A stretch of 64,000 bases of DNA from contig JBEBWI010000001.1 in NCBI GenBank assembly GCA_040392345.1, forward strand, positions 19,181 to 83,180, in the 5' to 3' direction. The notes under the pieces were generated by a model that was not told where the DNA came from, ran no database searches, and saw only the letters and a program-made list of their open reading frames with translations. Below are positions 1-14,992 of the stretch, piece after piece (the stretch's first letter is position 1; every line of letters begins with the position of its first letter). Both the position numbers and the translations under genes were made by a program. Origin of the DNA: Leucobacter soli. Its GTDB lineage: Bacteria; Actinomycetota; Actinomycetes; Actinomycetales; Microbacteriaceae.

Positions 1-124
1 AGAGCCCCGAGTAGAGACGAAGCGCGTCGGGAACTACGAGGCTCCCGTCGCTCCGACGCACCGCGGCCGCGTAGGTGTCCCCTCCCGAGGGTCGGTAGGT
101 CGTAAGGCTCCAGGAACTGGTCAT
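1..124 (-). CDS. 5' part of a CDS running off the left edge (possibly FAH-family hydrolase N-terminus)
   Basis: ATG at 124 preceded by AGAAAG; open frame MTSSWSLTTYRPSGG... to the edge; co-oriented with the operon. Confidence 0.5.
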   Translation of the reverse strand, partial: MTSSWSLTTYRPSGGDTYAAAVRRSDGSLVVPDALRLYSGL

Positions 125-178: not shown

Positions 179-907
179 CTATCGTGTGGCCGGCCCGGGC
201 GTCTCCCCCTGCGGCAGGTCGGCCGCCCGGCGCACGAGATGGCGGTACCCGGCGCGCATCGAAGGCGCCGGCCAGATCTCCGCTCGCTTCGTCGCGACTT
301 CCTCGGCCGAGGTCGCGACGAGCACCGGCCCGGAGGCCATCGCGCGCAGCTGCGTCGCGCACGCGCGCTCCAGAAGAAGCGCGTGCATGACCGCGTGCTC
401 GACGTCCGGGCCGACCGCGACCAGCCCGTGGCCGGGGATCAGGCAGCCGTTCTCCTCCTCGATCGCGCCGGCGAGCGCTTCGCCGAGCTCGGGCGTGCGG
501 ATGAGGTTCGCCGTGCGCGTGAATCGTCGCACGTCTTCGCCGAGGAATGGGGTTGCGGCATGACTGATCGCGCGCATGGGCACGCCGAGCGCCGCGAACG
601 CCACCGCGGCTTCGGCGTGCGTGTGCACGGTGGCGCCGATGTCGGGGCGGCGGCGCATCAGCTCGAGGTGGATATGCGCCTCGAGGTGTCGCTGGCCCGT
701 GCCCTGCAGCACCTCGCCGTCGAACGAGACCAGCACGACCTGCTCCGGCGTGAGATCCTCCATGCCCCATCCCGAGGCCTTCGACCAGACGCCTCGACCG
801 CGCGGGTCGCGAATGCCGATGTGCCCCCAGATCAGATCGGACTGGCCCGTCGTCGCGAGCGCGCGGTGCGCCTCGATCACCCGGGCGATCATCTCATCGT
901 CCGACAT
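179..907 (-). CDS. Class II aldolase/adducin family protein
   Basis: GHIGIRDP, EAHIH, VHTH and GHG Zn-binding pattern; ATG 907 after AAGGAG. Confidence 0.88.
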   Translation of the reverse strand: MSDDEMIARVIEAHRALATTGQSDLIWGHIGIRDPRGRGVWSKASGWGMEDLTPEQVVLVSFDGEVLQGTGQRHLEAHIHLELMRRRPDIGATVHTHAEAAVAFAALGVPMRAISHAATPFLGEDVRRFTRTANLIRTPELGEALAGAIEEENGCLIPGHGLVAVGPDVEHAVMHALLLERACATQLRAMASGPVLVATSAEEVATKRAEIWPAPSMRAGYRHLVRRAADLPQGETPGPATR

Positions 908-975
908 AGACGTTTCTCCTTCCCGAACTGCGGTCTGCGCGTCGAGGTTCTCGACGCCGGCCTCGGCGACGTCGT

Positions 976-1902
976 TCACCGCTTGATCGGCCCGCCGTCG
1001 GGAACGGGACCCCACGAGTTCATGAGCGACAGATCCGCCTCCCACGTCGTGGGCTTCATGGGGAAGTGCTCGTGCCAGGGCTGCGGCTCGTAGTATCCCT
1101 TCTCCTCGTCGAGCATCTGGTCGAGCTGTGTGAACAGTTCGATGCTGTTGCCGTCGGGATCGTAGTGATACGTGAAGATGTTGTGGCCGATGACGTGGCG
1201 GCCCGGCCCCCAGTACAGGCGGTGGCCGTGCTTCGAGAGATTGTCGACCATCGTCTGCAGGTGGCTCAGATCGCGCGCCTCGTAGGCGATGTGGTGCATC
1301 GCGTCGTACGCATCGCTCTGCATGAAGTTCGCGGCGTGGTGGTCGGCGTTGCAGCGCATGAACACGAAGAAGTCGCCGATGGAGTCGGCCCAGCGGAAGC
1401 CGAGTGCGGATTCGTAGAACGACCGGAGCAGCTTGACGTCGCTCGCGTAGGCCGCCACGTGGCCGAGCTTGTTCGGCCTGTGATCGAAACTCTGATCGAT
1501 GCCGCTGCGCTCCTGCTCCTGGTAGAGGTGCAGTGTGGATCCGGTGCCCTTCTCGGCGATGACGAGCACATCGGGCGTACCCGGCCCGATGTCGGAGCGG
1601 CGCTCGGACTCGATCCCGATCTCCTTCAAACGGCGCTGCGCGTCTGCAACGCTCTCCTGAATCTCATAGCCGACGACCGTGCGGCCTCTGGCCTCCTCGG
1701 CCTTCTCGATCACCGTGCAGTGATGATCTCCGCCGGTGGTGACGAAGGCCCTGCGCTCGTCGGCGTCAGTCGTGGCGAACCCCAGCACGTCGGTGTAGTA
1801 GCTGGTCAGTCGGGCGACGTCGGGGGTCTGGAACGCGACGTACCCGAGGCGGGAGACGTGCACGGGTGCCGCAGCCCGCGGCCGGTCGATCTTCTCATTC
1901 AT
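976..1902 (-). CDS. VOC-family extradiol ring-cleavage dioxygenase
   Basis: Two VOC domains; LGHVA, HHIAYE and GPGRH..GHNIFTYHYDPDGNSIELF metal-ligand motifs; ATGA overlap with upstream stop. Confidence 0.85.
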   Translation of the reverse strand: MNEKIDRPRAAAPVHVSRLGYVAFQTPDVARLTSYYTDVLGFATTDADERRAFVTTGGDHHCTVIEKAEEARGRTVVGYEIQESVADAQRRLKEIGIESERRSDIGPGTPDVLVIAEKGTGSTLHLYQEQERSGIDQSFDHRPNKLGHVAAYASDVKLLRSFYESALGFRWADSIGDFFVFMRCNADHHAANFMQSDAYDAMHHIAYEARDLSHLQTMVDNLSKHGHRLYWGPGRHVIGHNIFTYHYDPDGNSIELFTQLDQMLDEEKGYYEPQPWHEHFPMKPTTWEADLSLMNSWGPVPDGGPIKR

Positions 1903-2912
1903 ATGCGTACCCTTGTGCTCTCTGCGCGGGCGCTCTGCCCCGCGTATTTCTTCTGAAGTGCGGCCCAGCGCCTGCCGACCTCGGCACCGCCCTCGAGATA
2001 GGCGGCCGGGGCGGTCGTGTACGGCGGCCGGGTCGGGCCGGGTGTGAAGTACCCCGAGGCTTCGAACTCGGCGCGGTCGATCTGAATGTTGTACCGCTGG
2101 AACTCGTTGAAATCGCCACCGGGGAAGAGTGTCTCCACCGCATGGGCGATGTCGGCCTGAATCTGTTCGGCGAGCGCCCAGTCGCGCGCCCGTATCGCGT
2201 CTCGGAGCGCGGTCACCGGGGCCGGCCCGCAGTTGACGTCGCCGCTCCAGCATGCGGTCGCCTGCTCCGGGTACATGCGCGCGCTCGTCGCCCAGTCGTC
2301 TGCGACGGGCAGCAGGTTGATGCGGCCTGCCACGGCTTCGAGGTCAGCGGTGTACCGCTCGCCCAGAAGCCCGAGGCCCATGTGCTTCGAAGCCACGATC
2401 TGCGGAATCTCGGCCAACCTGGCATACGCCTGAGAGGAGATCTTGCCCTTGAACGCGCTCGGGTTGTCGTACGCGATCTGAGCCATGTCCGGCAGCGCCT
2501 CGGCCACCGAGCGATGGAACTCGACGATCTGATCGTCGTCGAGCGCCACCCACATCGGGCGGCCGAGGAAGAGCCCGTCGGCCCCGATCTCGCGCAGACG
2601 CCGACCGCGGTCGATCGTGTCCCTGGTGTTCAGCGTTGTCGCACCGGCGAACACTGGCACTCGACCGGCCACCGTGGCGACCACCGCATCGTTGAATGCC
2701 ATGAGCTCGTCGAGCGTCAGAGTCGCACCCTCGCCGAACGTGCCGTTGGTCAGAATCATGTCGACCCCGGCCTCGACCAGGGCGTTCGCGTGCCGCGCGC
2801 TCTCCTCGAGATCGACCGTCTCCGTCATATCCCAGCGCTCGGCGCCGGGAAGTGCGGGCGTCGCCAGAATCGCGACGACGCCCCGCACGTCTTCAGCCGT
2901 CAGTCGGGTCAC
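1899..2912 (-). CDS. phdJ: PhdJ/NahE-type hydratase-aldolase (trans-2'-carboxybenzalpyruvate hydratase-aldolase-like)
   Basis: NGTFGE, GRPMW, YDN..FKGKISS, QIVASKH and APAAYLEGGAEVGRRW match recalled PhdJ; GTGA overlap. Confidence 0.85.
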   Translation of the reverse strand: MTRLTAEDVRGVVAILATPALPGAERWDMTETVDLEESARHANALVEAGVDMILTNGTFGEGATLTLDELMAFNDAVVATVAGRVPVFAGATTLNTRDTIDRGRRLREIGADGLFLGRPMWVALDDDQIVEFHRSVAEALPDMAQIAYDNPSAFKGKISSQAYARLAEIPQIVASKHMGLGLLGERYTADLEAVAGRINLLPVADDWATSARMYPEQATACWSGDVNCGPAPVTALRDAIRARDWALAEQIQADIAHAVETLFPGGDFNEFQRYNIQIDRAEFEASGYFTPGPTRPPYTTAPAAYLEGGAEVGRRWAALQKKYAGQSARAESTRVRI

Positions 2913-4093
2913 CGCTGCTCGTCCCGCTCGAGGAAGGCGTCGCTCCGGTAGATCTGCTTCTCGGGCGCGGCGGGAACGCGCGGCGGCTCGTTGACGCCGA
3001 TGATCGCCTCCGGCTCTTCGTAGAAGTAGCCCAGGGCCTGCAGCGCCGGAATATCGTGGGTGCTGAACACCCGCAGCGGCGCGTCGGAGGTGTTGACGAA
3101 ACGGTGCCACGCGTAGTTCGGAATCGCGTAGGCGTCGCCGGCGCGAAGCTCGAGCGTCTTCCCCTCGACCTCGAGCGTGCCTTCGCCTGAGATCACGTAT
3201 CCGACGCTCGATGAGGAGCGCCGATGGAGCTTGCCGTCGAATCCGGGCACGAACTGCTGCAGCCAGCAATCCATGGTCTGGAAGGTGGTGCCTCCGGTGA
3301 CCGGGTTCGCGTATCGGAGGGCAAGCCCGTCGTAGGCGTCGCCGGCCGAGGCGTCCGAGGCGTAGGCGTCGAGTACCGGCTCGATGTCCTTCCACGCGTA
3401 GCGGATCGGCAGGCGGTTCTGCCGCGCGCTCTCGCGCACCGGCCGAAGCGCGGTCGCGCGCAGCCCCTGATAGTCGGCGAGCGACTCGCGTCGCGGCTGG
3501 CTCTCAGGGCCGTAGGGTTCGAAGAACGCCTGGTTGAGCGCCGTCGTGAGCCCGAGGTCGAGCACATCGAGCCAGATGACCTCGCCATCGGTCGGGTTGT
3601 GGTGGTCGTGCCACGAGCTGCGCGGGGTGATGAGCAGATCGAACGTGTCCATCGTCAGCGGTTCGCCGTCGACGACCGTGTACGTCTCGGGGTTGCCCTC
3701 GATGATGAAACGCAGCGCGCTCATCGTGTGCCGGTGCGACCAGCAGATCTCCTTGGCGCGCATGATCTGGATGCCGATCGCCATGGTGTGCGTCGAACCG
3801 GGCGCGCCCTGGGTGATCTCGGGGTTGGTGAACACCAGGCTCGTGCGGCCGATGCCGCGCGGGCCCAGCACCTTGGAGGCCTCCACGAGATGATCGCGGG
3901 TCTCCGACCATGGCCAGACCATGCCGGTGCCGCGCGGCCGCGGCCCCCCGACGTGCGCATCCATCATCGGCTCGAACTGCCACTGACCGCGAATGTTCTG
4001 TGCGTTGATCTTCGCGTCGTATTCTCTCAGGCGAGCAAGATCCTCGCCCTCGGGCATTGCGTCCTGGTCGACCACGGTGTCTGTACTACTCAT
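2909..4093 (-). CDS. phdI: Bicupin 1-hydroxy-2-naphthoate 1,2-dioxygenase-like (gentisate dioxygenase family)
   Basis: CWSHRHTMSA, WHDHHN, GLALRYANPVTGG and HRRSSS match recalled PhdI; RBS GGAAAGGA. Confidence 0.85.
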   Translation of the reverse strand: MSSTDTVVDQDAMPEGEDLARLREYDAKINAQNIRGQWQFEPMMDAHVGGPRPRGTGMVWPWSETRDHLVEASKVLGPRGIGRTSLVFTNPEITQGAPGSTHTMAIGIQIMRAKEICWSHRHTMSALRFIIEGNPETYTVVDGEPLTMDTFDLLITPRSSWHDHHNPTDGEVIWLDVLDLGLTTALNQAFFEPYGPESQPRRESLADYQGLRATALRPVRESARQNRLPIRYAWKDIEPVLDAYASDASAGDAYDGLALRYANPVTGGTTFQTMDCWLQQFVPGFDGKLHRRSSSSVGYVISGEGTLEVEGKTLELRAGDAYAIPNYAWHRFVNTSDAPLRVFSTHDIPALQALGYFYEEPEAIIGVNEPPRVPAAPEKQIYRSDAFLERDEQR

Positions 4094-4121
4094 GACTCTT
4101 TCCTTTCCTGATGGGTGCGGA

Positions 4122-5585
4122 TCAGCGGTTCGCCGCATCCGCGTACTTCACGTGAACGCTCTTCACCTGCGTGTAGGAGAGCAGTTCGTCGAGCTCTTCC
4201 TCGCGACCGATGCCGCTGTTCTTCACGCCGCCGTAGGGTGCGCCCGGAAGGTGTCGCGACACCTCGTTGACCCAGACGTAGCCGGCGTCGATCTCCTCGG
4301 CGAAGCGAAGCGCACGCGAGAGATCCCGCGTGAAGACGCTCGCGGTCAGCCCGAACTGCGTAGCGTTCGCCATGCGAAGCGCCGCGCTCTCGTCGGCGAA
4401 CGGAGTCACCGAGAGAATCGGGCCGAAGATCTCCTCCTGTGCGAGGCGCGAGTCGATCGCGACATCGGCGAACACCGCCGGGCGCACGAAGAGGCCGCGG
4501 TCGAGGGCACCGTCGGAGACCCGGTCGCCGCCCGTCATGAGGCGCGCGCCCTCGCTCTTCCCGAGGGAGACGTAATCGAGTACTTTCGCGAGCTGCCGGT
4601 CGTTCACGATCGCTCCGGTCTGAGACGCGGGGTCGTCGGGCAGCCCGGGCTGCAGCGACCCCACCTTCTCGGTCAGCCGCTCGACGAACTCGTCGTACAG
4701 TGATTCGTGCACCAGGTTCCGCGACAGCGAACCGCACGACTGGCCCTGCCAAGTGAAGTTCATGCCGCGCACCGCTGCGTCGACGACCGTGTCGAGGTCC
4801 GCATCGGAGAAGATCACGAGCGGGTTCTTCCCGCCGAGCTCGAGCGACACCGACTTGACCATGCGCTCGGCCGCACGCCGCTGGATCGCAAGCCCCGTTG
4901 CGACCGACCCGGTGAACGCGATCCGCCTCACATCGGGGTTCGAGACCAGCGCGTCGCCCGCCTCGGGCCCGGCCCCGGTGACGACGTTCAGCACCCCGGC
5001 CGGAAGCACCTCGTTCGCGAGCTCCGCGAGCAGCAGGGCCGAGAGACTGGTGAACTCGCTCGGCTTCAACACCACCGTGTTTCCCGCCACCAGCGGTGCG
5101 GCGATCTTGCTCGCCGCGAACATGAACGGGTGGTTGAACGGCACGATCCGCGCAACCACGCCGAACGGCACGCGGGTCGTGTAGGTGAGCTCCCCCGAGC
5201 CGCCGGGCAGCGTTTCGCCCCGCACGTGCAGCGCGAGGCCCGCGTAGTAGCGGAGTGCCGCGATCCCTGCCGATACGTCGCGGCGCATCTCTGTGAGCAG
5301 GCTGCCGTTCTCCGCGGAATCCAGCGCGGCGAACTCTTCGGCCCGCGCCTCCACCGCCCGGGCGAGACGCACGATCATCTCGGCTCTGGCGGTAGGCGCG
5401 AGCCGCTTCCACGCAGGCGCCGCCGTGTGCGCCGCCGCAACGGCACGGTCCACGTCGTCGCGAGTGGCATTCGGAAACGTTCCGATGAGCTCGCCCGTCG
5501 CGGGGTTGCGGGTTTCGACCAGCGACCCGTCACCGGCTGCCACCCGCTCCCCTCCGATGAGCATGCGGCGATCGGTCGCAGACAT
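4122..5585 (-). CDS. phdK: Aldehyde dehydrogenase, 2-carboxybenzaldehyde dehydrogenase-like
   Basis: PFNHPFMFAASKIAAPL, LELGGK and GMNFTWQGQSCGS typical of the PhdK subfamily; adjacent to phdI/phdJ; TGATG overlap. Confidence 0.75.
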   Translation of the reverse strand: MSATDRRMLIGGERVAAGDGSLVETRNPATGELIGTFPNATRDDVDRAVAAAHTAAPAWKRLAPTARAEMIVRLARAVEARAEEFAALDSAENGSLLTEMRRDVSAGIAALRYYAGLALHVRGETLPGGSGELTYTTRVPFGVVARIVPFNHPFMFAASKIAAPLVAGNTVVLKPSEFTSLSALLLAELANEVLPAGVLNVVTGAGPEAGDALVSNPDVRRIAFTGSVATGLAIQRRAAERMVKSVSLELGGKNPLVIFSDADLDTVVDAAVRGMNFTWQGQSCGSLSRNLVHESLYDEFVERLTEKVGSLQPGLPDDPASQTGAIVNDRQLAKVLDYVSLGKSEGARLMTGGDRVSDGALDRGLFVRPAVFADVAIDSRLAQEEIFGPILSVTPFADESAALRMANATQFGLTASVFTRDLSRALRFAEEIDAGYVWVNEVSRHLPGAPYGGVKNSGIGREEELDELLSYTQVKSVHVKYADAANR

Positions 5586-6763
5586 CAGACCGCGCCTTCG
5601 GCGCGCAGTTCGGCCACCTGCTCGGGCGAGAGACCGAGTATCTCGCCGTAGACCTCTTCGGTGTGCTCGCCCACTCGCGGGCCGGCGTGCGTGATGCGCG
5701 TAGGCGTACCGCTGAAGCGGATCCACGGTGCGAGCAGGGTGACTTCGCCCGCTTCATCGTGGTCGACCTTGACGAAGGCCTGACGCTCCGCCAGGTGCCG
5801 ATCCTCCATCACATCGGCGATCGTGTTCACCGGGCCGATCGGCAGCTTCTGCGGTGTCAGCAGCTCGAAGAGCTCCTTCGGCGTGAACTCCTTGAGCCAC
5901 TCGCCCGCGGTCTGCTGCACGAGCTTGAGGTTCGCTCGGCGGGCCTCGGTGGTCGCGAACCTCTCATCCGAGAGCATGTCGGCATGACCGAGCGCGGTGG
6001 CGAACGCCGTGAACTGCTCCTGCGTCATGTCGGGAACGTGGAAGGCGACGTGCCCGTCCTTGGCCTCCATGTATGCGCCGGCCGGGCCCTGGCCCTCGAA
6101 GTACTCGTGGAAGGTCGCCACGTTGAACCCCATGAGCGATTCCTGCATCGAGACCTCGATCTTCTGGCCCTCGCCCGTGACCGCCTTGCGGTACAGGGCG
6201 CCCAGCAGACCGACCGCGAGCGACACGCCGGCCGCTTCGTCGCCCGGGCCGAGCACCTGGGTGCCCGGCGCGCCCGACATGCGCCACGAGGCGTCCGCCC
6301 AGCCGGAGGCGGCCATGGCGACCGTCGCGTACGAGCGGTACGACGCGTATGGACCGGTCTCGCCGTACCCCTTCGACGAGCCGAAGATGATGTCCGGCTT
6401 GATCTCCTTGAGCGCTTCGTAGCCGAATCCGAGGCGATCCATGACGCCGGTTGAGAAGTTCTCCACGACCACGTCGGCGCTGCGCACGAGGTCGGTGAAG
6501 ATCTCGCGGCCCTTCGGGTGCTTCAGGTTGAGGGTTACCGCTTTCTTGTTCGCGTTGACCGCGAGGAATTCGTACCCATCGTGATCCGCGTCGAACGGCA
6601 TCCATGCGTGGCGGAAACGATCGGGGGAATCGCTCTGCTCCACCTTGATCACCTCAGCGCCGAGGTGGGCGAGCAGCATGGTTGCGAAGGGACCGTTCAG
6701 CACGTGCGAGAGGTCGATCACGCGCACCCCTGCAAGGGGGCCGAAACCGTTGGTTGAACTCAT
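5585..6763 (-). CDS. Family III CoA-transferase (CaiB/BaiF)
   Basis: PLAGVRVIDLSHVLNGP, LGAEVIKVE, ADVVVENF, GYGETGPY. Confidence 0.92.
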   Translation of the reverse strand: MSSTNGFGPLAGVRVIDLSHVLNGPFATMLLAHLGAEVIKVEQSDSPDRFRHAWMPFDADHDGYEFLAVNANKKAVTLNLKHPKGREIFTDLVRSADVVVENFSTGVMDRLGFGYEALKEIKPDIIFGSSKGYGETGPYASYRSYATVAMAASGWADASWRMSGAPGTQVLGPGDEAAGVSLAVGLLGALYRKAVTGEGQKIEVSMQESLMGFNVATFHEYFEGQGPAGAYMEAKDGHVAFHVPDMTQEQFTAFATALGHADMLSDERFATTEARRANLKLVQQTAGEWLKEFTPKELFELLTPQKLPIGPVNTIADVMEDRHLAERQAFVKVDHDEAGEVTLLAPWIRFSGTPTRITHAGPRVGEHTEEVYGEILGLSPEQVAELRAEGAV

Positions 6764-6832: not shown

Positions 6833-8299
6833 TCATGACCCGACCCCGTCGAATGCCGGCACCGATGCCTCGGTGAGGTTGACCGTCTTCGTCTCGTAGA
6901 AGGCGGCGAGCCCCTCGGGCCCGAACTCACGCCCCACGCCCGACGCTTTGACCCCGCCGAACGGCATCTGAACGTTATGCGTGAACCCGTTGATGCTGAA
7001 CGTGCCCGTGCGCACCTCACGGGCCACGCGTACCGCCGTCTCCGTGTCCTCGGTGAACACCCCGCCATGGAGTCCGTAGTCGGAATCGTTCGCGATGGCG
7101 ATCGCCTCGTCGAGGGAGTCGTATGGGATCACGACTGCGACAGGGCCGAAGATCTCCTCCCGGCTCACGCGCATCGCGTTGTTCGCCCCGGTGAGCACCG
7201 TCGGTTCGATGAAGTATCCGGCATCGACCCCGCTCGGGCGACCGCCGCCAGCGACCACCGTCGCGCCCTCCTCGGCGCCGAGAGCGATGTAATCGAGCAC
7301 CTTTCGGTACTGCGCTTCCGAGGCGACCGGACCCAGGTTCGTCGATGGATCGGCGGGATCGCCGATCACGTACGAGGACGCGGCTTCGGCGACGACCTGT
7401 ACCCAGCGGTCGTGCTGTTCCGTCGGCACGAGGATGCGGGTGAACGCGTTGCAGGTCTGCCCGGTATTGACGAAAGTGCCCTCGATGATTCCGGCGCGCA
7501 CCTTCTCGGGGTCCGCGTCTTCCACGACGATCGCCGCGGATTTGCCGCCGAGCTCCAGCTGCAGGCGAGTGAAGTTCGCGCCGGCCGACCGCGCGATCTC
7601 GCGCCCGGCCGCCGTGGATCCGGTGAAACTCACCTTGTCGATCCCGGGGTGGGAGGTCAGTGCGCGGCCGGTGTCGCGGCCGCCCGTGACCAGGTTGAAC
7701 ACGCCGTTGGGAAGGCCGGCGCCTTGAAGCGCCTCAGCGATCTCGTAGACGTCGAGCGGCGTTTCAGGGGCCGGCTTGAACACGAGCGTGTTGCCGGCCG
7801 CCAGTGCCGGGAAGATCTTCGCGATCGCCATGTTGAACGGGCTGTTCCAGGGCGTGATCGCGGCGATCACCCCGACCGGTTCTCGCACGATGGCCGCCGG
7901 GCCGAACCTGGTGGAGCGCACTTCGCTCACCGGGATCTCGCGCATGAGTTCGAGCATGTGCTCGCCCACCCAGATGCCTGCCGGCGTCTTGCGCCGGGAG
8001 ATCGAGATCGGCACTCCCATCTCGTCGGTGACGAGTGCGGCGATCTGCTCGCTCCGCGCCTTCAGCGCCTCGAGGGCACGGGTGAGCACGGCTGCGCGTT
8101 CCTCGAACGCCAGACCGCTCCAGCTGCCGCCGTCGAATGCGCGCCGAGCCGCTCCAACAGCCGCGTCCACATCGCTCTCATCGGCGTCGACGACCTCGCC
8201 GATCACCCGTTCGGTCGTGGGCGAAACCACGGATATGCGAAGCGCGGACGCGGATGCGCGCCATTCGCCATCGATGAGCAACTCATGCCGAACGATCAT
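6833..8299 (-). CDS. Aldehyde dehydrogenase
   Basis: ITPWN, FTGST, LELGGKS, GQTC, EEIFGPV. Confidence 0.93.
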   Translation of the reverse strand: MIVRHELLIDGEWRASASALRISVVSPTTERVIGEVVDADESDVDAAVGAARRAFDGGSWSGLAFEERAAVLTRALEALKARSEQIAALVTDEMGVPISISRRKTPAGIWVGEHMLELMREIPVSEVRSTRFGPAAIVREPVGVIAAITPWNSPFNMAIAKIFPALAAGNTLVFKPAPETPLDVYEIAEALQGAGLPNGVFNLVTGGRDTGRALTSHPGIDKVSFTGSTAAGREIARSAGANFTRLQLELGGKSAAIVVEDADPEKVRAGIIEGTFVNTGQTCNAFTRILVPTEQHDRWVQVVAEAASSYVIGDPADPSTNLGPVASEAQYRKVLDYIALGAEEGATVVAGGGRPSGVDAGYFIEPTVLTGANNAMRVSREEIFGPVAVVIPYDSLDEAIAIANDSDYGLHGGVFTEDTETAVRVAREVRTGTFSINGFTHNVQMPFGGVKASGVGREFGPEGLAAFYETKTVNLTEASVPAFDGVGS

Positions 8300-8368: not shown

Positions 8369-8390
8369 CAACATGGCATTTGCAATGTTT
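8369..8390. promoter_or_regulatory. Palindromic operator copy 1 (CAACATGGCA-TT-TGCAATGTTT)
   Basis: Imperfect palindrome upstream of the ALDH; same motif at 8903, 8961 and 14971. Confidence 0.65.
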
Positions 8391-8437: not shown

Positions 8438-8782
8438 TCAGGAGTAGACGAAGAACTCGATCGTGGGCTCCTGAATCGTCCACACGGTCCGAGTACCCTT
8501 GTTGAATGAGGCGACCCCGCCTGCAGCGAGCTCATGCGTCGGGCCGCCGACGACCTCGACCCGCACTCGCCCCTTGACGATGTGGACCGTCTCGTCCGCA
8601 TGGATGAGCACCTCCACCGGCTTCGGCGCCTCGCTCGGGTTCACCGTCCAGAACCCGCATCCGAGGTCGGGGCGCTCCCCCGAACCCGGCTTCCTGATCC
8701 ACTGGATCACGCCCGCATTGAACGGCTCGGCGCGGTCGATGTCATACGCCCCGCTGAAGCTCACTGATGCCTCGGTGGTCAT
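8438..8782 (-). CDS. Small cupin (EutQ/DUF861-like)
   Basis: CGFW..., DETVHIVKGRV, SFNKG...WTI cupin pattern; RBS GGAAGG. Confidence 0.8.
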   Translation of the reverse strand: MTTEASVSFSGAYDIDRAEPFNAGVIQWIRKPGSGERPDLGCGFWTVNPSEAPKPVEVLIHADETVHIVKGRVRVEVVGGPTHELAAGGVASFNKGTRTVWTIQEPTIEFFVYS

Positions 8783-8902: not shown

Positions 8903-8982
8903 AACCATAGCAAGTGCAACGTTTGTCGGCAAGCATCTGTATACACTTTTAGAGATTCCCAAACAAAGCACTTGCAATGTTT
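8903..8982. promoter_or_regulatory. Two operator copies (8903-8924, 8961-8982) in a divergent promoter
   Basis: AACCATAGCA-AG-TGCAACGTTT and AAACAAAGCA-CT-TGCAATGTTT in an AT-rich spacer. Confidence 0.65.
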
Positions 8983-9153
8983 GCGAAACATGGGCAAGAT
9001 CGGTACACGCGGCCTTTGCGAACCGACGGCAGAACACCTCTGACGTTCGCGGCTCTTCGGGTCGCCGCAGACCGACTTCGTCCGCTGCACCGCACCAGCC
9101 GCACCGAGAAGTCACAGCCCGACAGTCACAGCCCGACAAAGGAGACGAGCACT

Positions 9154-10455
9154 TTGACCAGACCACTTCACTTCGGTTTCTTCAGTTCGTTCATGCCCCC
9201 CGCTTGGCACGCCGGTTCCGACAGGATGTTCGGCGACGATTGGCCGACGGGTGGCTACCACACCTGGCTTGCGCAACGGGTCGAGGAGGCAGGCTTCGAT
9301 TTCCTCTTCTTCGAGGACACCGCCGGGGTCTCTCGCAAGATCGGCGGCAGCATCGAGATGGACCTGCGCCATGTGCTCAGCGCCCCCAAGAACGACCCCG
9401 TCGCACTGATCACCTACCTCGCGGGCAAGACGGAGCGGCTCGGCCTCATCGCGACCGGTTCGACGACGCTCTACCCTCCGTTCCTGCTGGCGCGGCTCTA
9501 CTCCACCATCGACAGCCTCAGCAACGGGCGGGTCGGCTGGAACATCGTGACCTCGAGTGAAGACGAGGCCGCGCAGAACTTCGGGCTCGACGCGCTGCCC
9601 CCGACGAACGAGCGGTACGCGATCGCCGACGAGTTTCTCGAGGTCGTCACGAGCCTCTGGGACTCGTGGGATCCGGATGCCATCGTCAAAGATCTCGAGA
9701 ACAACATCTACACCGACCCCAGCAAGGTTCGTGAGATCAACCACGTCGGCGAGCATTTCAAGGTGCGCGGGCCGCTGAACACCTATCCCTCGCCTCAGCA
9801 TCGCCCCGTCTTCGCGCAGGCCGGTGGATCACCGCGTGGCCGGGAATTCGCAGCTCGTCACGCCGAGCTCATCATGTCGGTGACCGTCGGCGGCGTCGAC
9901 GAGATGAAGGAGTTCCGCGAGGACATGCACGCTCGAATGCGAGCCCTGGGCCGTGATCCACGCGAAGCGCGCATCGTCTACGCGCTGCACCCGTACATCT
10001 TCAACAACCCGGCGGAGCGGCGGGCTTCCATCACCGACAATCAGCTGATCCCCGTGCTCGGCAAGCACGGGGCGCATCTCGGGATCGATCTGCTCGAGTT
10101 CGACCTCGACAAGCCGCTGCCCCTCGACCTCGAGGTGAACGGCACGACGAGCATGTTCGAGTCGCTGAGGGAGAAAGCGCGTCGGGGCGTCTCGCTGCGC
10201 GAGGCCATCATCGATTTCCACTGGGGCCCCGACGATGTGGGCACTGCGGGCCCTGCCGCAGACGTCGCGCGCAACCTCATCGACACGATGGAGGAGGTCG
10301 GCGGCGACGGGTACATCTTCATGTGCACGCAGGACGCCAACCGTTCCGTACTCGACGGCGTGTTCGACGAACTGGTGCCCGAGTTGAAACGACTCGGCGC
10401 ATGGCGCACGGATTTCCCGGGCAAGACCTTCCGCGAGAACCTCCTCGCCTTCTAA
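9154..10455 (+). CDS. NtaA/DmoA/DszA-family FMNH2-dependent monooxygenase
   Basis: GFDFLFFED, GRVGWNIVTS, H.GEHFKVRGPLN, QAGGSPRGREFAARHAE; TTG start after AAGGAG. Confidence 0.9.
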   Translation: MTRPLHFGFFSSFMPPAWHAGSDRMFGDDWPTGGYHTWLAQRVEEAGFDFLFFEDTAGVSRKIGGSIEMDLRHVLSAPKNDPVALITYLAGKTERLGLIATGSTTLYPPFLLARLYSTIDSLSNGRVGWNIVTSSEDEAAQNFGLDALPPTNERYAIADEFLEVVTSLWDSWDPDAIVKDLENNIYTDPSKVREINHVGEHFKVRGPLNTYPSPQHRPVFAQAGGSPRGREFAARHAELIMSVTVGGVDEMKEFREDMHARMRALGRDPREARIVYALHPYIFNNPAERRASITDNQLIPVLGKHGAHLGIDLLEFDLDKPLPLDLEVNGTTSMFESLREKARRGVSLREAIIDFHWGPDDVGTAGPAADVARNLIDTMEEVGGDGYIFMCTQDANRSVLDGVFDELVPELKRLGAWRTDFPGKTFRENLLAF

Positions 10456-10534: not shown

Positions 10535-11866
10535 ATGAGCGACAAGACCAACTCCGCAGCTGAACCGGTGGACGTGCTCATCGTCGGCGCCGGCTTCGCC
10601 GGACTCGCCGCAGCGCGCGACCTGACCCACAGCGGGAGGAGCGTCACGATACTGGAAGCGCGCGACCGGATCGGCGGGCGCACCTGGTACTCGGAGACCC
10701 GACTCGGCCGCAAGCTCGAGCTCGGCGGCGGCTTCGTGCATTGGAACCAGCCCCACGTCTGGTCGGACATGATCAAGTACGGGCTCGACCTGGAACCGGT
10801 TGAAGACATCGACACCGTGTACTGGATCGCCGGCGACACGCTGCACGAATCGCCCGTTGCCGAGTACAAGGCCCTGGTCGCCCCGGGTCAGGCGGCGCTC
10901 GCGGAGGGCGCGCTCCGCGCCTTTCCCCGCCCACACGAGCTGTTCCCGCTGACCGACGACGCCAAGGCGGCAGATGATGTCTCGGTACCGGAGAGAATCG
11001 CGCAGCTCGACCTCCCCGACGACGTCTCCGAACTGCTCCGAACGCATTGGACGCTTTCGTTCAGCGGGCTCACCGACGACGCCGCATGGTCGCAGATCTT
11101 GCATCACACCGCACTCGCCGGTGGGCTGTGGCAGATGCGCGCCGAGGCCGCGAACGCCTATGTGATCCGCCAGAGCACGCAGGCCTATGTCGATGCCCTT
11201 GCCGCCGACGGCGACGCGAACATCCTCCTGTCGACGGTGGTGAGCTCGATCACCCAGCACGACGGATACGTGACCGTTCGCACCGAGGGCGACGAGGAGT
11301 TCCAGGCCCTCGAGGTGCTGGTCACGATTCCACTCAACATCTTGAACTCGATCGAGTTCACGCCGCCGCTCTCCCGACAGAAGCGCGATGCCGCCGAGCG
11401 CGGGCAAGTCTCCACCGGGCTCAAGGTGTGGATGCGAGCACGGGGCGATGTCGGCCGCTTCATCGCCTTCGCTCCGGATTCCTCCCCGCTCACCATGACC
11501 GGCTACGAATACACGATCGATGGCGACGCCATCCTGATCGGGTTCGGCCCCCGTTCCGCAGATCTCGACATCAACGACGTTCGCGCCGTTGAAGCCGTTG
11601 TGCGGCAATGGCTGCCCGAGATCGAACTCGTCGAGGTGCAGGGGCATGACTGGACCGCCGACCCCTATTCGGGTGAGACTTGGTCGATGCTGCGCACCGG
11701 CCAACTCGATGATGTCGAAGAGCTGGCGCGCCCCGAAGGCCGTGTGCAGCTCATCGGCAGCGACTACGCCTTCGGCTGGAACGGCCATCTCGATGGTGCG
11801 CTCGAGACGGCTCGACGAGCAGTTCATCGAATCGTCACGGAATCTCCTCACGACAACGCAGAGTAG
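10535..11866 (+). CDS. Flavin monoamine oxidase family protein
   Basis: GAGFAG, EARDRIGGRT, ELGG.FVHWNQPHVW, GWNGHLDGALE. Confidence 0.9.
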   Translation: MSDKTNSAAEPVDVLIVGAGFAGLAAARDLTHSGRSVTILEARDRIGGRTWYSETRLGRKLELGGGFVHWNQPHVWSDMIKYGLDLEPVEDIDTVYWIAGDTLHESPVAEYKALVAPGQAALAEGALRAFPRPHELFPLTDDAKAADDVSVPERIAQLDLPDDVSELLRTHWTLSFSGLTDDAAWSQILHHTALAGGLWQMRAEAANAYVIRQSTQAYVDALAADGDANILLSTVVSSITQHDGYVTVRTEGDEEFQALEVLVTIPLNILNSIEFTPPLSRQKRDAAERGQVSTGLKVWMRARGDVGRFIAFAPDSSPLTMTGYEYTIDGDAILIGFGPRSADLDINDVRAVEAVVRQWLPEIELVEVQGHDWTADPYSGETWSMLRTGQLDDVEELARPEGRVQLIGSDYAFGWNGHLDGALETARRAVHRIVTESPHDNAE

Positions 11867-11918
11867 TACCGGGCACCAAACCAGCGTTCATTCACTTCAA
11901 CGACGAAGAGGGAACCAG

Positions 11919-13445
11919 ATGACCACGCAAGAGATCGGCAACACGTCCACCGGCTCGGGCTCGGGCTCGGGCTCGACGGCAGAATCGAGCAATGCCCACG
12001 TGAGCGCGCTGTCGCCCCGACGAAGATGGATCGCACTCGCCGTACTGCTTTCCGGCATCTTCATCGGGCTGGTTGATATGCAGTCGGCCAACCTTCTCAT
12101 CCCGGCGCTCACCGAGTCGTTCGGAGCTTCCAGCTCGACGCTCTCCTGGTTCATCGGCGGCTACACGCTCGCCTACGGAGTAGCGCTCGTACCCGCCGGG
12201 CGGCTCGGCGACCGCTACGGGCACAAGCTGATCTTCATCATCGGCCTCGGCGGATACGTCGTCACCTCGGCGAGCGCGGCGTTCGCGCAGGATCCCACGA
12301 CGCTCATCGTATTGCGCGTCGCCCACGGGCTCGCGGGCGGCATGGTGATCGCACCGGTCTTCGCCTACATCCAGCTGCTGTTCACCGGTCGGGCCCGAGT
12401 ACGAGCATTCGGGTTCTTCCTGGCGACCACGGGCGCCGGGTCTCTCATCGCGCCGTTCGTCGCGGCATGGTCGGTCGAGGGCCTCGGCAACGACCCGGGC
12501 TGGCGCCTCACCGTCGGTTCTTCGGCGATTCTCGGGTCGATCGCTCTGGCGCTCGCGTTCACCGCGCTCCCCCGCGTCAACAGCGCGGTCGAGGGCCGGT
12601 TCGACGCGCTGGGCATGATCCTGTTCGGCGTCGTCTTCGTCGCGCTCCTCCTTCCCCTCATACAGTCGGATTCGGGCAATCTGCCGGCATGGGCTCCGTG
12701 GAGCTTCGCCGCGTGCCTGGCGGCGGCCCTCCTGTTCGCCCTCTGGCAGTGGCGCATCGAGAAGCACGGCGGGCTTCCGCTCTTGCGTCTCAGCCTGTTC
12801 AAGCTCCCCGAGTTCAGCTTCGGCCTCATCACCCTGGTGCTCGCCTTCGCGAGCTTCACCGCGTCGATCTTCATCGCCCTGACCACGCTCTGGGTCTGGG
12901 GGTTCGGGAACAGCGAGAGCTCCGCCGCACTCCTCCTCCTGCCGCTCTCCCTCGGCGGGGTCATCGGCGGCCTGCTCGCCGACCGGTTCCAGGCGCTCGT
13001 CGGCCGGTTCGCCGTGACGCTTTCGCTCGTCATACTGAGCCTCGGCAACACCGCGATCTGGCTCCTGGCGCAGGTGCCGGAGGTGAGCATGACGGCGTTC
13101 GCAGTGCCGTTCCTCGTCGCCGGCGCAGCTTCGGGTCTCTTCTTCGGCCCGATCAACGCATCGCTGCTCGCCCGCGTGCCCGAGATCGACGCGGGAAGCG
13201 CGGGCGGAGCCTCGGTCACACTGCAGCGCGTCGGCTCCGCGCTCGGCTCCTCGGTGGTCTTCATCGTGCTGATGATCCGCCCCGGTGTGAGCCCCGATGA
13301 GTTCGCACCGGAGGACTGGGTGGCCACCTCCATCAACGCGCTGCAGGTGCTCATGGTGTTCTCCGTCGCGGCGCTCGTGCTGAGCCTCGTGATCGACTAC
13401 CTGACCCGCAACGAGACAGCGGTGCGAGAAGCTCTCAAGAAGTGA
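11919..13445 (+). CDS. 14-TM MFS transporter (DHA2-like)
   Basis: GRLGDRYGHK motif A and many hydrophobic helices. Confidence 0.9.
   Translation: MTTQEIGNTSTGSGSGSGSTAESSNAHVSALSPRRRWIALAVLLSGIFIGLVDMQSANLLIPALTESFGASSSTLSWFIGGYTLAYGVALVPAGRLGDRYGHKLIFIIGLGGYVVTSASAAFAQDPTTLIVLRVAHGLAGGMVIAPVFAYIQLLFTGRARVRAFGFFLATTGAGSLIAPFVAAWSVEGLGNDPGWRLTVGSSAILGSIALALAFTALPRVNSAVEGRFDALGMILFGVVFVALLLPLIQSDSGNLPAWAPWSFAACLAAALLFALWQWRIEKHGGLPLLRLSLFKLPEFSFGLITLVLAFASFTASIFIALTTLWVWGFGNSESSAALLLLPLSLGGVIGGLLADRFQALVGRFAVTLSLVILSLGNTAIWLLAQVPEVSMTAFAVPFLVAGAASGLFFGPINASLLARVPEIDAGSAGGASVTLQRVGSALGSSVVFIVLMIRPGVSPDEFAPEDWVATSINALQVLMVFSVAALVLSLVIDYLTRNETAVREALKK
11952..11975 (+). repeat. (GGCTCG)4 in-frame microsatellite encoding GSGSGSGS
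   Basis: Four exact hexamer copies. Confidence 0.8.
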
Positions 13446-13569
13446 CTCCGCAGAGATGATTCAGACCAGCAGGGGCTCGGTGCGCGGAGCTCGCAGGCCC
13501 CGCGCTTCGAAGCACCCGATCGACTCCGATGCCCGATTTCCCACCTCTTCCCAGACGCAGGAGCATGAC

Positions 13570-14151
13570 ATGACCGTTCGAATCGGCGTAATCGTCGGCA
13601 GCACACGACCCGGGCGCAAGGCCCTCGATGTGGCGCGTTGGGTGCACGCGCTCGGGAACGACCGCACCGATGCGGAGTTCGAACTCGTCGACATCGCGGA
13701 CTTCAACCTTCCCAACTTCGACGAGTCGGGAGTTCCTTCATTCGGCGGAGGCTACGAGAAGCCGCACACCATCGCCTGGGCCGCAGAGATCGCACGATTC
13801 GACGGCTTCATCTTCGTGACCCCCGAGTACAACCACTCGGTTCCGGGCGCGCTCAAGAACGCGATCGACTTCCTGAATCCCGAGTGGAACAACAAGGCCG
13901 CGGCCTTCGTCAGCTACGGAGGCAGTGCCGGGGGCGCTCGCGCGATCGAGCATCTCCGCCTCATCCTCGCCGAGGTGCAAATGGCGACGGTGCGCACGAA
14001 CATCGTGCTCCCGTTCGCATCCGAGTTCGCACCCGGCCTCACAGATTTCACTCCGGGCGACTACCAGTTGCCGTTCGTCAGCCAGATGTTCGACCAAGTG
14101 ATCGCATGGTCTGGCGCGCTGAAACAGCTTCGAGTCGCCGCCAACGCGTGA
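13570..14151 (+). CDS. NAD(P)H-dependent FMN reductase
   Basis: GSTRPGR, TPEYNHSVPGALKNAID. Confidence 0.92.
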   Translation: MTVRIGVIVGSTRPGRKALDVARWVHALGNDRTDAEFELVDIADFNLPNFDESGVPSFGGGYEKPHTIAWAAEIARFDGFIFVTPEYNHSVPGALKNAIDFLNPEWNNKAAAFVSYGGSAGGARAIEHLRLILAEVQMATVRTNIVLPFASEFAPGLTDFTPGDYQLPFVSQMFDQVIAWSGALKQLRVAANA

Positions 14152-14232: not shown

Positions 14233-14853
14233 TCAGGCCGAAAGGGATTCGGCGTGCGCCAGCACCAGGTGCCTGAGCAGGCGGCGGGACCCGGCGACCT
14301 GCCTGTCGGTGATCTCGGCCCAGTCGGAGCCGAACACCACGCGCTGGTAGAGGATCCCGTCACCCATCGCCACTACGGCGTCGACGAGCTCATCGATATC
14401 GCCGGCGACGCCGGCTTCGATCAGCACGCTGCGGACGCGAGCGCGGTAGACATCCTGGTTCCTCCGCACGATCGCCGCGAGGCCGGGATTCGTGCGAGAG
14501 GAGACGTAGACCTCGGTGAGGAACACCGGCAGATCGGGAATCTCGTCCATCATCGCGGTGAAGTGCATCAGCAGATCCTCGACGCGCGGCACCTCGGCCA
14601 TGTAGGTCTGCGACTGCTCCACGCACCACTCGAGCGCCGCCTCGAGCAGCGCGAGCAGGTTCGGGAAGTGATGTCGGAGGCTGCCTTGGCTGACGCCCGC
14701 CTCGGCCGTGACGGAGCGATAGGTGAGCTTGGAAAGACCGTCACGTGCGACGAGCCGTACCGCGGCCTCCACCAGGGCCTGACGGCCGTGTCCGTAGGGC
14801 AGCCGAGCCGACTCCTCAGATGCCGAAACGGATTCCGATCTCATCTCTGACAC
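14233..14853 (-). CDS. TetR-family regulator
   Basis: N-terminal HTH LTYRSVTAEAGVSQGSLRHHF. Confidence 0.9.
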   Translation of the reverse strand: MSEMRSESVSASEESARLPYGHGRQALVEAAVRLVARDGLSKLTYRSVTAEAGVSQGSLRHHFPNLLALLEAALEWCVEQSQTYMAEVPRVEDLLMHFTAMMDEIPDLPVFLTEVYVSSRTNPGLAAIVRRNQDVYRARVRSVLIEAGVAGDIDELVDAVVAMGDGILYQRVVFGSDWAEITDRQVAGSRRLLRHLVLAHAESLSA

Positions 14854-14970: not shown

Positions 14971-14992
14971 AACCATTGCATCTGCATGGTTT
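14971..14992. promoter_or_regulatory. Operator copy 4 upstream of tetR (AACCATTGCA-TC-TGCATGGTTT)
   Basis: Palindrome matching the copies at 8.4-9.0 kb. Confidence 0.65.

Follow-up and report, generated by a model that had tools for sequence, protein, structure and literature searches.

The conversion of 1-hydroxy-2-naphthoate to o-phthalate in the degradation of polycyclic aromatic hydrocarbons (PAHs) is encoded by phdI, phdJ and phdK of Nocardioides KP7 and by related gene sets of Micrococcaceae and Mycolicibacterium, and phenanthrene degradation is routinely inferred from the presence of genes of the PhdI/J/K type in a genome or metagenome. Here, we analyze a phdKIJ-like gene trio that lies, together with genes for a CoA-transferase, an extradiol dioxygenase and a class II aldolase-fold protein, in a 64,000-nt stretch of Leucobacter soli DNA (G000:C1:19181-83180, called the window below). 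We will argue, with a confidence that is about even, that these six genes stand at the centre of a TetR-controlled regulon that is conserved, rare and independent of Rieske dioxygenases, and that degrades a natural aromatic amine or acid and not a PAH.

Other described systems resemble further parts of the locus. In the meta-cleavage of 2,3-dihydroxybenzoate, the ring-fission product is decarboxylated by DhbB, a class II aldolase-fold enzyme whose family also includes the decarboxylase PhtC (PMC6362003). The systems Ltp2-ChsH2(DUF35), Sal-Shy(DUF35), IpfD/IpfE of ibuprofen catabolism and BbsAB combine a thiolase fold of the SCP2/'lipid-transfer protein' type with a DUF35 zinc-ribbon/OB protein and a CoA-activating enzyme. 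The motif HDCF of SCP2 thiolases is replaced by YDHF in Ltp2 and by YDCY in Sal, both of them steroid aldolases, with the Tyr as the catalytic base (PMC12329534). The nicotine pyrrolidine pathway of Pseudomonas putida S16 (Pnao/Sapd), finally, pairs an amine oxidase with an aldehyde dehydrogenase (ALDH) and includes a NicC-type FAD monooxygenase.

The window belongs to a 2.8-Mb assembly (225 contigs, 67% G+C) that is 79.8% complete, and the nearest relatives of its proteins are found in Microbacteriaceae. Protein families were assigned with Pfam, the NCBIfam equivalog models were applied with their own cut-offs, and structural relatives were obtained by a sequence search of the PDB. Positions marked L001 refer to the locus on contig C1 that includes the flank before the window start. 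The ring-cleavage operon contains the following genes:

6833-8299, minus strand: ALDH2, an aldehyde dehydrogenase, first gene of the operon (Pfam Aldedh, E 1.5e-159)
5585-6763, minus strand: family III CoA-transferase (Pfam CoA_transf_3, E 1e-94; 69-90% identical in all extended clusters, see below)
4122-5585, minus strand: ALDH1, PhdK-like aldehyde dehydrogenase, 487 aa from the ATG at 5585 (Pfam Aldedh)
2909-4093, minus strand: PhdI-like bicupin ring-cleavage dioxygenase, 394 aa (49% identical to KP7 PhdI and 86% to the Leifsonia kafniensis protein)
1899-2912, minus strand: PhdJ-like hydratase-aldolase, 337 aa (dihydrodipicolinate synthase (DHDPS) family; translationally coupled to the bicupin)
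976-1902, minus strand: type I (VOC) extradiol dioxygenase, 308 aa (Pfam Glyoxalase and BphC_D1)
179-907, minus strand: class II aldolase-fold metalloenzyme, 242 aa (Pfam Aldolase_II, E 5e-40)
1-124, minus strand: the first 124 nt in the window of an FAA-family (HpaG-like) gene that continues outside it (whole gene L001:18411-19304)
L001:17102-18514, outside the window: FAD monooxygenase, after the FAA gene

The original prediction had described the stretch 179-6763 as a unit with the order CoA-transferase, PhdK, PhdI, PhdJ, extradiol dioxygenase and class II aldolase, and with overlaps at three junctions. The order is confirmed by the Pfam assignments, with all six genes on the minus strand, and inspection of start codons and ribosome-binding sites gives the same overlaps: the CoA-transferase stop and the ALDH1 start share one nucleotide (TGATG), the bicupin and PhdJ-like genes share GTGA, and the PhdJ-like and VOC genes share ATGA. 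A fourth overlap, between the VOC and class II aldolase-fold genes via a GTG at 979, is unlikely. The ATG at 907 is preceded by a strong ribosome-binding site, GGGAAGGAG, and yields a protein of 242 aa, a length like that of the homologues (234-244 aa), and this start is therefore more probable. The unit itself, on the other hand, was drawn too narrowly, since the operon extends downstream to the FAA and FAD monooxygenase genes and upstream to ALDH2. The latter gene heads the operon also in Leifsonia, Arthrobacter ginkgonis and Rhodococcus T2V, and its best NCBIfam matches include the Rhodococcus-type phenylacetaldehyde dehydrogenase (411 bits, below the cut-off). For the six proteins of 179-6763, the CoA-transferase included, no NCBIfam equivalog model reached its cut-off.

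The trio is, as judged from homology, a real but divergent relative of PhdI, PhdJ and PhdK, in line with what had been proposed. The KP7 relative of the bicupin, PhdI (EC 1.13.11.38), is named 1-hydroxy-2-naphthoate dioxygenase in one source. The PhdJ-like enzyme matches the PhdJ structure 6DAN with 427.6 bits (E 2.9e-127) and NahE with 293-300 bits (9frt, E 2.7e-88), both hydratase-aldolases of the N-acetylneuraminate lyase subgroup, a full-length similarity well above that to dihydrodipicolinate synthases, which reach at most 68 bits. It is 57-60% identical to the products of genes adjoining phdI in PAH degraders, and the Lys in IVASKH and the Tyr in AYDNPS, candidates for the Schiff-base lysine and the active-site tyrosine of the class I aldolase fold, have the expected spacing, as read directly from the protein. 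ALDH1 is 50% identical to the ALDH encoded 0.7 kb downstream of phdIJ on the replicons of Pseudarthrobacter p212 and Crystallibacter (degradans) SF27, a likeness that makes it a candidate counterpart of PhdK, the 2-carboxybenzaldehyde dehydrogenase. Its best NCBIfam matches are generic and below their cut-offs, and the motifs ELGGKNP and QGQSCGS are present by direct reading. In every locus examined, the bicupin and PhdJ-like genes are adjacent.

A second DHDPS-family gene is located at 42900-43919 (minus strand). It is very divergent (Pfam, 28.5 bits), adjoins SDR and SBP_bac_5 genes, and is no close paralogue of the PhdJ-like gene; a genome search with the PhdJ-like protein (P0002) yielded only a 30%-identical fragment on contig C124.

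The active site of the bicupin, an enzyme of the gentisate/salicylate dioxygenase superfamily, was compared with that of salicylate 1,2-dioxygenase (2PHD). His120, His122 and His162 align with the iron ligands of 2PHD, Arg128, Gln109, His164 and Asp176 with its substrate-anchoring residues, and Arg83 with the corresponding Arg; all eight are invariant in 114 relatives. Positions 108, 159 and 191 of the pocket vary between relatives. The sole pocket difference that is fixed between the two actinobacterial clades of the enzyme (A and B, see below) is at residue 85, presumably the counterpart of Ala85 of the neighbouring subunit in 2PHD, which is His in all of clade B and Ser or Asn in clade A and the outgroup. 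This difference is compatible with a shifted specificity of the bicupin, while the pocket comparison as a whole did not decide between a mono- and a bicyclic substrate.

We now consider the conservation of the locus. The same gene set, called the extended cluster here, recurs in a small number of soil actinobacteria, namely near bicupin homologues of L. kafniensis, A. ginkgonis, Paenarthrobacter sp. YAF11_1, Rhodococcus sp. T2V, Streptomyces acidicola, S. carpinensis, Streptomyces sp. NPDC057474 and a Pseudolysinimonas metagenome-assembled genome (two loci). Its constant core comprises the genes for an amidohydrolase, a thiolase-like protein, a DUF35 protein, the CoA-transferase, ALDH1, the bicupin, the PhdJ-like enzyme, the VOC enzyme and the FAA protein, and the synteny of bicupin, PhdJ and VOC is strict in nine loci. 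Most proteins of the L. kafniensis cluster are 74-90% identical to those of the window, with lower values for the DUF35 protein and the FMN reductase. In Rhodococcus T2V, the genes form a single co-directional array (ALDH, amidohydrolase, thiolase-like, DUF35, CoA-transferase, ALDH, bicupin, PhdJ-like, VOC, class II aldolase-fold, FAA, nitroreductase, FAD monooxygenase), which is flanked by amine oxidase and TetR genes. An amine module and TetR accompany the versions of Microbacteriaceae, Micrococcaceae and Rhodococcus; in those of Streptomyces, their place is taken by GntR and an adjacent P450 of the PbdA type. The bicupin family is rare: among 400 genomes sampled from the class, only three, which belong to a single genus, have a match with an E value of 1e-60 or better (45-46% identity), and among 13 sampled from the same family there is none. 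Full-text literature searches for the gene combination returned no description of the cluster.

In a midpoint-rooted tree of 114 bicupin sequences, the actinobacterial rows split into clade A (31) and clade B (11), with 98-100% support for the separating branches. The window bicupin belongs to clade A, together with Streptomyces, Arthrobacter and Leifsonia proteins, and is outside the clade of the characterised KP7 PhdI, which forms with Micrococcaceae plasmid enzymes a sub-clade of B (99% support). Beside this PAH sub-clade, clade B contains P0040, from a complete extended cluster of Pseudolysinimonas, and P0043, from a partial one of Georgenia. Both clades hence include bicupins of the extended context, while those of the PAH context are confined to a single sub-clade, which suggests that PAH degraders may have recruited phdIJ(K) from this type of cluster.

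The original prediction had noted that a ring-hydroxylating dioxygenase is missing from the 64 kb, and had proposed a genome search for nid/phdABCD and pht genes. The absence extends beyond the window. The profile PF00848 has no match in the whole assembly and none in the 4.8-Mb isolate genome of L. kafniensis, while it does give matches in the PAH degrader SF27 and in larger genomes. Five matches to the Rieske profile PF00355 are present in the genome, all on contigs other than that of the window. The claim that phthalate genes are missing has to be qualified: no phthalate dioxygenase was found, but PhtC and DhbB are of the same family as the class II aldolase-fold protein. Concerning other dioxygenases, the assembly has no match to the intradiol profile PF00775 and at least 13 VOC-domain matches, five of them on C1. 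Two Rieske-domain open reading frames of 420-430 aa were seen on contigs C48 and C6.

The loci of PAH type look quite different. Those of Pseudarthrobacter p212, Crystallibacter SF27 and Mycolicibacterium CR10 contain only the bicupin, PhdJ and sometimes an ALDH, and in SF27, genes for a Rieske dioxygenase of the phthalate type and for a class II aldolase-fold protein lie within a few kb of the locus. They share with the window the three enzyme families (43-50% identity for the bicupin, 57-60% for PhdJ and 50% for the ALDH), the adjacent and coupled bicupin and hydratase-aldolase genes, and the metal and anchoring residues of the bicupin. However, at the locus studied here the ALDH gene precedes the pair instead of following it, the bicupin is of a separate clade with Ser/Asn instead of His at position 85, PF00848 matches are lacking in the genome, and in and around the window there are genes for VOC, class II aldolase-fold and FAA proteins, CoA-transferase, aldolase/DUF35, amidohydrolase and amine oxidase, none of which occur at the PAH loci. 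A phthalate product would moreover have no visible onward route here, which disfavours the canonical role. Because of the non-canonical setting, the missing Rieske and phthalate dioxygenases, and the separate clade with its residue 85, a substrate other than phenanthrene-derived 1-hydroxy-2-naphthoate is likely. In our reading, which we hold with fair confidence, the trio would perform chemistry of the PhdIJK type in a Rieske-independent regulon for a natural, non-PAH substrate that enters as an amine or as a methoxylated acid.

The regulon is suggested by a 20-bp palindromic pattern, AACANNGCANNTGCAANGTT, for which a search yielded seven matches at four sites of the window, compared to 0 expected in 100 shuffles. 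The candidate repressor and the sites are as follows:

14233-14853, minus strand: TetR-family regulator, candidate repressor (Pfam TetR_N and TetR_C_31)
14972-14991: operator upstream of tetR, 2 mismatches
8904-8923 and 8962-8981: two operators in the divergent promoter between the Cupin_3 and monooxygenase genes
8370-8389: operator, perfect match, upstream of the operon from ALDH2 to the FAD monooxygenase

Three more operators are located in the flank (0 expected), two of them directly upstream of the amidohydrolase operon (L001:8941 and 8962) and one at L001:16901. In L. kafniensis, A. ginkgonis and Rhodococcus sp. T2V, the equivalent promoters carry the core motif as well, and tetR homologues stand beside the cluster in A. 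ginkgonis (59% identity) and Rhodococcus T2V. At the level of sequence, the pattern is evidence that the ring-cleavage operon responds to the same putative repressor as the amine module and the amidohydrolase/aldolase module, ca 20 genes in ca 34 kb of C1 altogether. A scan for consensus promoters and terminators gave nothing above shuffles, and no RNA run is listed among the sequencing runs for 179-6763.

The operator at L001:16901-16920 (2 mismatches) lies at the start of a gene for an ABC binding protein (SBP_bac_5, L001:15152-16930), and the corresponding importer may thus belong to the regulon beside the MFS transporter.

The amine module is divergent from the ring-cleavage operon and is given here together with the small cupin gene next to it:

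8438-8782, minus strand: small EutQ-like cupin, 114 aa (Pfam Cupin_3; 73% identical and syntenic in L. kafniensis)
8977-10455, plus strand: NtaA/DmoA-family FMN-dependent (luciferase-like) monooxygenase, first gene of the module (Pfam; TIGR03860, 365 bits, above the cut-off)
10535-11866, plus strand: flavin amine oxidase of the nicotine-catabolic type (Pfam; PDB 7u6l/7e7h, E ~1e-76; 5ttj, E 5.5e-70; 3k7m, E 1.5e-51)
11589-13445, plus strand: MFS transporter, longest open reading frame (Pfam MFS_1, residues 154-553)
13456-14151, plus strand: NADPH-dependent FMN reductase (Pfam FMN_red, E 2.4e-42)

Syntenic homologues of the FMN-dependent monooxygenase in A. ginkgonis and L. kafniensis are 74-80% identical to it, and the FMN reductase is likely its partner. 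Since the longest reading frame of the MFS transporter overlaps the amine oxidase gene, its true start is probably later than 11589. The best solved relatives of the amine oxidase, which is syntenic in Leifsonia, A. ginkgonis and Rhodococcus T2V, are 7u6l/7e7h, which we take to be the pseudooxynicotine amine oxidase Pnao, 5ttj, presumably NicA2, and 6-hydroxy-L-nicotine oxidase (6HLNO). The likeness to the nicotine pathway of strain S16 consists in the pairing of a Pnao/NicA2-like oxidase with an aldehyde dehydrogenase and in an FAD monooxygenase nearest to ipso-hydroxylases of the NicC type. However, the identity is at the family level only, no molybdenum hydroxylase and no dihydroxypyridine dioxygenase of the NicX/Hpo type were seen in the cluster, and the ring-cleavage enzymes are of the benzenoid type. 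In Rhodococcus T2V (L047:4535-7478), a RibBA-like gene (DHBP synthase and GTP cyclohydrolase II) takes the place of the FMN-dependent monooxygenase, between the FMN reductase and the amine oxidase.

In the flank, 10 kb beyond the window start, there is an operon for a TRZ/ATZ-like amidohydrolase, an Ltp2/Sal-like thiolase-fold protein and a DUF35 protein, adjoined by GntR, flavin reductase and FMN reductase genes. The thiolase-fold protein scores best against the NCBIfam 'lipid-transfer protein' model (253 bits, compared to 66 bits for BbsB). By direct reading it has YDPF (VYDPF), and neither a GHP histidine motif nor a C-terminal CxGGG cysteine is present. The DUF35 protein, encoded next to it, has zf-ChsH2 and OB_ChsH2_C domains with four Cys. 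With the CoA-transferase, these two proteins look like a module for activation and retro-aldol cleavage and not a thiolytic one. The fold, the DUF35 partner, the CoA-activating enzyme and the Tyr of the YDxF motif are shared with Ltp2 and Sal, but the DUF35 protein is stand-alone instead of fused to MaoC, the third motif residue is Pro instead of His or Cys, a family III CoA-transferase replaces the ligase, and the context is the cleavage of aromatic rings and not of steroids.

For the amidohydrolase, the PDB search gave remote relatives of the TRZ/ATZ type and no functional lead, and NCBIfam gave PRK08204, a 'hypothetical protein'. Paralogues with 46-49% identity are found in Modestobacter roseus (L048:8001-11337) and Microbacterium aurum (L049:8001-11313), in operons of amidohydrolase, metallo-beta-lactamase (MBL)-fold and FAA hydrolase genes with a LysR regulator; the pairing of amidohydrolase and FAA thus recurs outside the phd-like cluster.

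Some 15 kb before the window start (L001:2581-4815), C1 carries a CYP199 P450 gene whose product matches with 579 bits the structure 9G9Q of PbdA, the p-methoxybenzoate O-demethylase of Rhodococcus jostii RHA1. It is accompanied by a PDR-type reductase and a divergent IclR regulator, with no copy of the TetR operator nearby. A 64%-identical P450 and its reductase stand directly beside the extended cluster in three Streptomyces species.

The last part of the operon may concern a second ring cleavage. The best PDB matches of the VOC enzyme, which is 53-84% identical across the extended clusters, are 3b59 and homoprotocatechuate 2,3-dioxygenases. Among the NCBIfam decarboxylase models, PhtC comes nearest to the class II aldolase-fold protein (78 bits compared to a cut-off of 200), and the PDB matches of this protein are the iron-dependent pyruvic oxime dioxygenases (best), the HMPDC decarboxylase 2z7b and NovR. 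It is more likely a candidate decarboxylase of a ring-fission product or of a dihydroxyphthalate-type compound, i.e. of the DhbB type, than an aldolase in function, and since its best matches are pyruvic oxime dioxygenases, it may also have an oxygenase role. The VOC gene adjoins the class II aldolase-fold gene not only here but also in Leifsonia, Paenarthrobacter, A. ginkgonis and Rhodococcus T2V. The FAA protein is nearest to HpaG and the OPET decarboxylase, and the FAD monooxygenase to decarboxylating hydroxylases (NicC, vanillate 1-hydroxylase and salicylate hydroxylase), with a resemblance also to 3-hydroxybenzoate hydroxylases. The likeness to the DhbA/DhbB pathway is one of family and gene arrangement: directly after the type I extradiol dioxygenase comes a class II aldolase-fold protein, and the operon also encodes an ALDH and an enzyme of the FAA family. 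Unlike in that pathway, there is no 4-oxalocrotonate tautomerase, nor are there separate hydratase, aldolase or acetaldehyde dehydrogenase genes, and the Streptomyces versions of the cluster lack the decarboxylase gene.

On this basis, the following sequence of steps can be proposed. The amine oxidase would convert an amine to an aldehyde and ALDH2 would oxidize this to the carboxylic acid, while in Streptomyces the entry would probably be an O-methylated acid, handled by the adjacent PbdA-like P450. The CoA-transferase, the Tyr-type thiolase-fold aldolase and the DUF35 protein would then remove a two- or three-carbon unit from a beta-hydroxyacyl-CoA by a retro-aldol reaction. The bicupin would open an o-hydroxy-aryl-carboxylate between the carbons that carry the hydroxyl and carboxyl groups, the PhdJ-like enzyme would hydrate the 4-substituted 2-oxobut-3-enoate and release pyruvate, and ALDH1 would convert the aldehyde to the dicarboxylate. 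The VOC enzyme, the class II aldolase-fold decarboxylase and the HpaG-like FAA protein would handle a carboxy-catechol. This could be the first ring of a fused two-ring substrate, with the VOC enzyme acting before the bicupin in a naphthalene-like manner and the hydratase-aldolase and the ALDH being used twice, or a hydroxylated side branch generated by the FAD monooxygenase.

We are less confident about this last part, namely that the substrate has two rings or gives two ring-cleavage intermediates, with the VOC enzyme, the decarboxylase and the FAA protein acting before or beside the trio. According to the original prediction, the VOC enzyme would open the second ring after the trio. A better fit is provided by a parallel branch or by the reverse order, in which the VOC enzyme comes first, like in the catabolism of naphthalene, since the regulon contains nothing that would convert a phthalate-type product to a catechol. 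The substrate proposed there, a hydroxynaphthoate analogue, survives only insofar as a compound other than the phenanthrene-derived one is likely, because a monocyclic acid of the salicylate type fits the trio equally well. A more specific version of the pathway, which we find possible but doubtful, has as its substrate a natural N-bearing aromatic with fused rings, for instance an acid derived from an alkaloid, a quinolone, a naphthoquinone or an indole. It would enter via the amine oxidase or the P450, its side chain would be trimmed by the CoA-transferase, the stand-alone DUF35 protein and the Tyr-type aldolase, two ring-cleavage dioxygenases would share one hydratase-aldolase, and the phdIJK genes of phenanthrene degraders would have been recruited from this pathway, which would be the older one.

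The main rival is a hub for monocyclic hydroxybenzoates with no fused ring, which we judge to be rather unlikely. Here, the bicupin would be a 1,2-dioxygenase of the salicylate type, with salicylate or a substituted salicylate as its substrate. The PhdJ-like enzyme and ALDH1 would lead to pyruvate and a maleate-type C4 diacid, the VOC enzyme and the decarboxylase would degrade 2,3-dihydroxybenzoate formed by the FAD monooxygenase, and the FAA protein would be an acylpyruvate hydrolase or a 4-oxalocrotonate-type decarboxylase. The trio alone would then take salicylate to central metabolites without a phthalate dead end, in agreement with the phthalate dioxygenase not being found in the genome. 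The conserved catalytic residues that align with 2PHD, the DhbA/DhbB precedent for the VOC enzyme and the decarboxylase, and the resemblance of the FAD enzyme to salicylate and 3-hydroxybenzoate hydroxylases are consistent with such a hub as well, and so is a metagenomic variant of the cluster (L008), which is devoid of VOC and still has the bicupin, PhdJ-like, ALDH, FAA and class II aldolase-fold genes. The hub thus accounts well for the ring-cleavage operon. It leaves, however, no role for the co-regulated amine oxidase, CoA-transferase, aldolase/DUF35 and amidohydrolase; the nearest characterised relatives of all three trio members use a bicyclic substrate, and the bicupin-PhdJ-VOC synteny in nine loci suggests a single substrate.

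Two other explanations are less likely. The locus could be an island of independent modules, with a separate bicupin module beside a route for arylethylamines (of tyramine or dopamine type) through a homoprotocatechuate-like meta pathway, in which the amine oxidase, ALDH2, the VOC enzyme, an HpaE-like ALDH and the HpaG-like FAA protein take part and the hydratase-aldolase replaces HpaH/HpaI. The homoprotocatechuate 2,3-dioxygenases are indeed the best named PDB relatives of the VOC enzyme, HpaE is the second-best NCBIfam match of ALDH1 (443 bits), the FAA protein is nearest to HpaG, ALDH2 resembles phenylacetaldehyde dehydrogenases, and 2-oxohept-3-enedioate would formally be a substrate of the PhdJ/NahE type. 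But the scores are far under the equivalog cut-offs, no 4-hydroxyphenylacetate 3-hydroxylase (HpaB) is among the genes annotated in and around the cluster, and the translational coupling of the bicupin and PhdJ-like genes in every locus links the aldolase with the bicupin. With the operator shared and the genes of Rhodococcus T2V in a single operon, one pathway is also favoured, and the island is improbable. Still further down, we place the canonical lower phenanthrene pathway, which leads from 1-hydroxy-2-naphthoate to phthalate; the upper nid/phd genes and the pht genes would then be in that fifth of the genome which the assembly does not cover. The clear homology of the three enzymes to PhdI/J/K and the completeness of just 79.8% speak for it. 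However, L. kafniensis has the same cluster at 74-90% identity and, like the 2.8 Mb analyzed here, no PF00848 match; real PAH replicons have only phdI-phdJ(-ALDH), with phthalate dioxygenase genes nearby and no other genes of the cluster; the bicupin is in another clade than the characterised PhdI; and the operator pattern points to co-regulation with the amine oxidase module. This reading is thus very improbable. Two described clusters were also compared with the locus. The phenazine-degradation cluster of Mycobacterium fortuitum was rejected, as it is Rieske-based and shares no CoA, aldolase or cupin genes. The benzoxazinoid bxd cluster of Microbacterium found no support, since its genes (MBL lactonase, ALDH, VOC, oxidoreductase) do not match and the text of the paper contains no amidohydrolase or FAA hydrolase.

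It should be pointed out that a number of observations weigh against our preferred reading, the TetR-controlled, Rieske-independent regulon for a natural aromatic amine or acid. The order of the steps and the number of rings rest on inference, the sharing of the operator is a sequence pattern with a putative TetR site, and the amidohydrolase, with its remote PDB relatives, has no assigned role. No enoyl-CoA hydratase is present to feed the aldolase, and neither a MaoC nor a crotonase hydratase was seen in any of the clusters looked at, so that the beta-hydroxy acid must arise in another way. The Streptomyces loci are devoid of the class II aldolase-fold and FAD monooxygenase genes, and variant L008, without VOC, carries two flavin monooxygenases; not all parts of the cluster are thus obligatory. 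With a genome that is 80% complete, a distant Rieske system is possible, and in a midpoint-rooted tree the direction, with PAH genes derived from the cluster, is only suggested.

As to the habitat, DNA nearly identical to 179-6763 is present in several runs of one insect-metagenome study (55-92% of the sampled words) and in a run of one study on bioreactor sludge (74%), these two studies being the sources of all DNA runs that contain half or more of the words. The runs are pointers to the habitat only.

The trio is thus found in a conserved regulon that lacks a PAH upper pathway, while close relatives of its bicupin carry public names such as 'gentisate 1,2-dioxygenase', 'naphthalene 1,2-dioxygenase' and '1-hydroxy-2-naphthoate dioxygenase'. 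This means that annotations of this kind over-call the potential for PAH degradation. Cultivable carriers through which the substrate can be sought are L. kafniensis JCM 17021, A. ginkgonis JCM 30742 and Streptomyces acidicola K1PN6, and the cluster can be used to ask where the lower-pathway genes of PAH degraders originated. It would also exemplify the use of a steroid-type pair of thiolase-fold aldolase and DUF35 protein in aromatic catabolism, beside a family III CoA-transferase.

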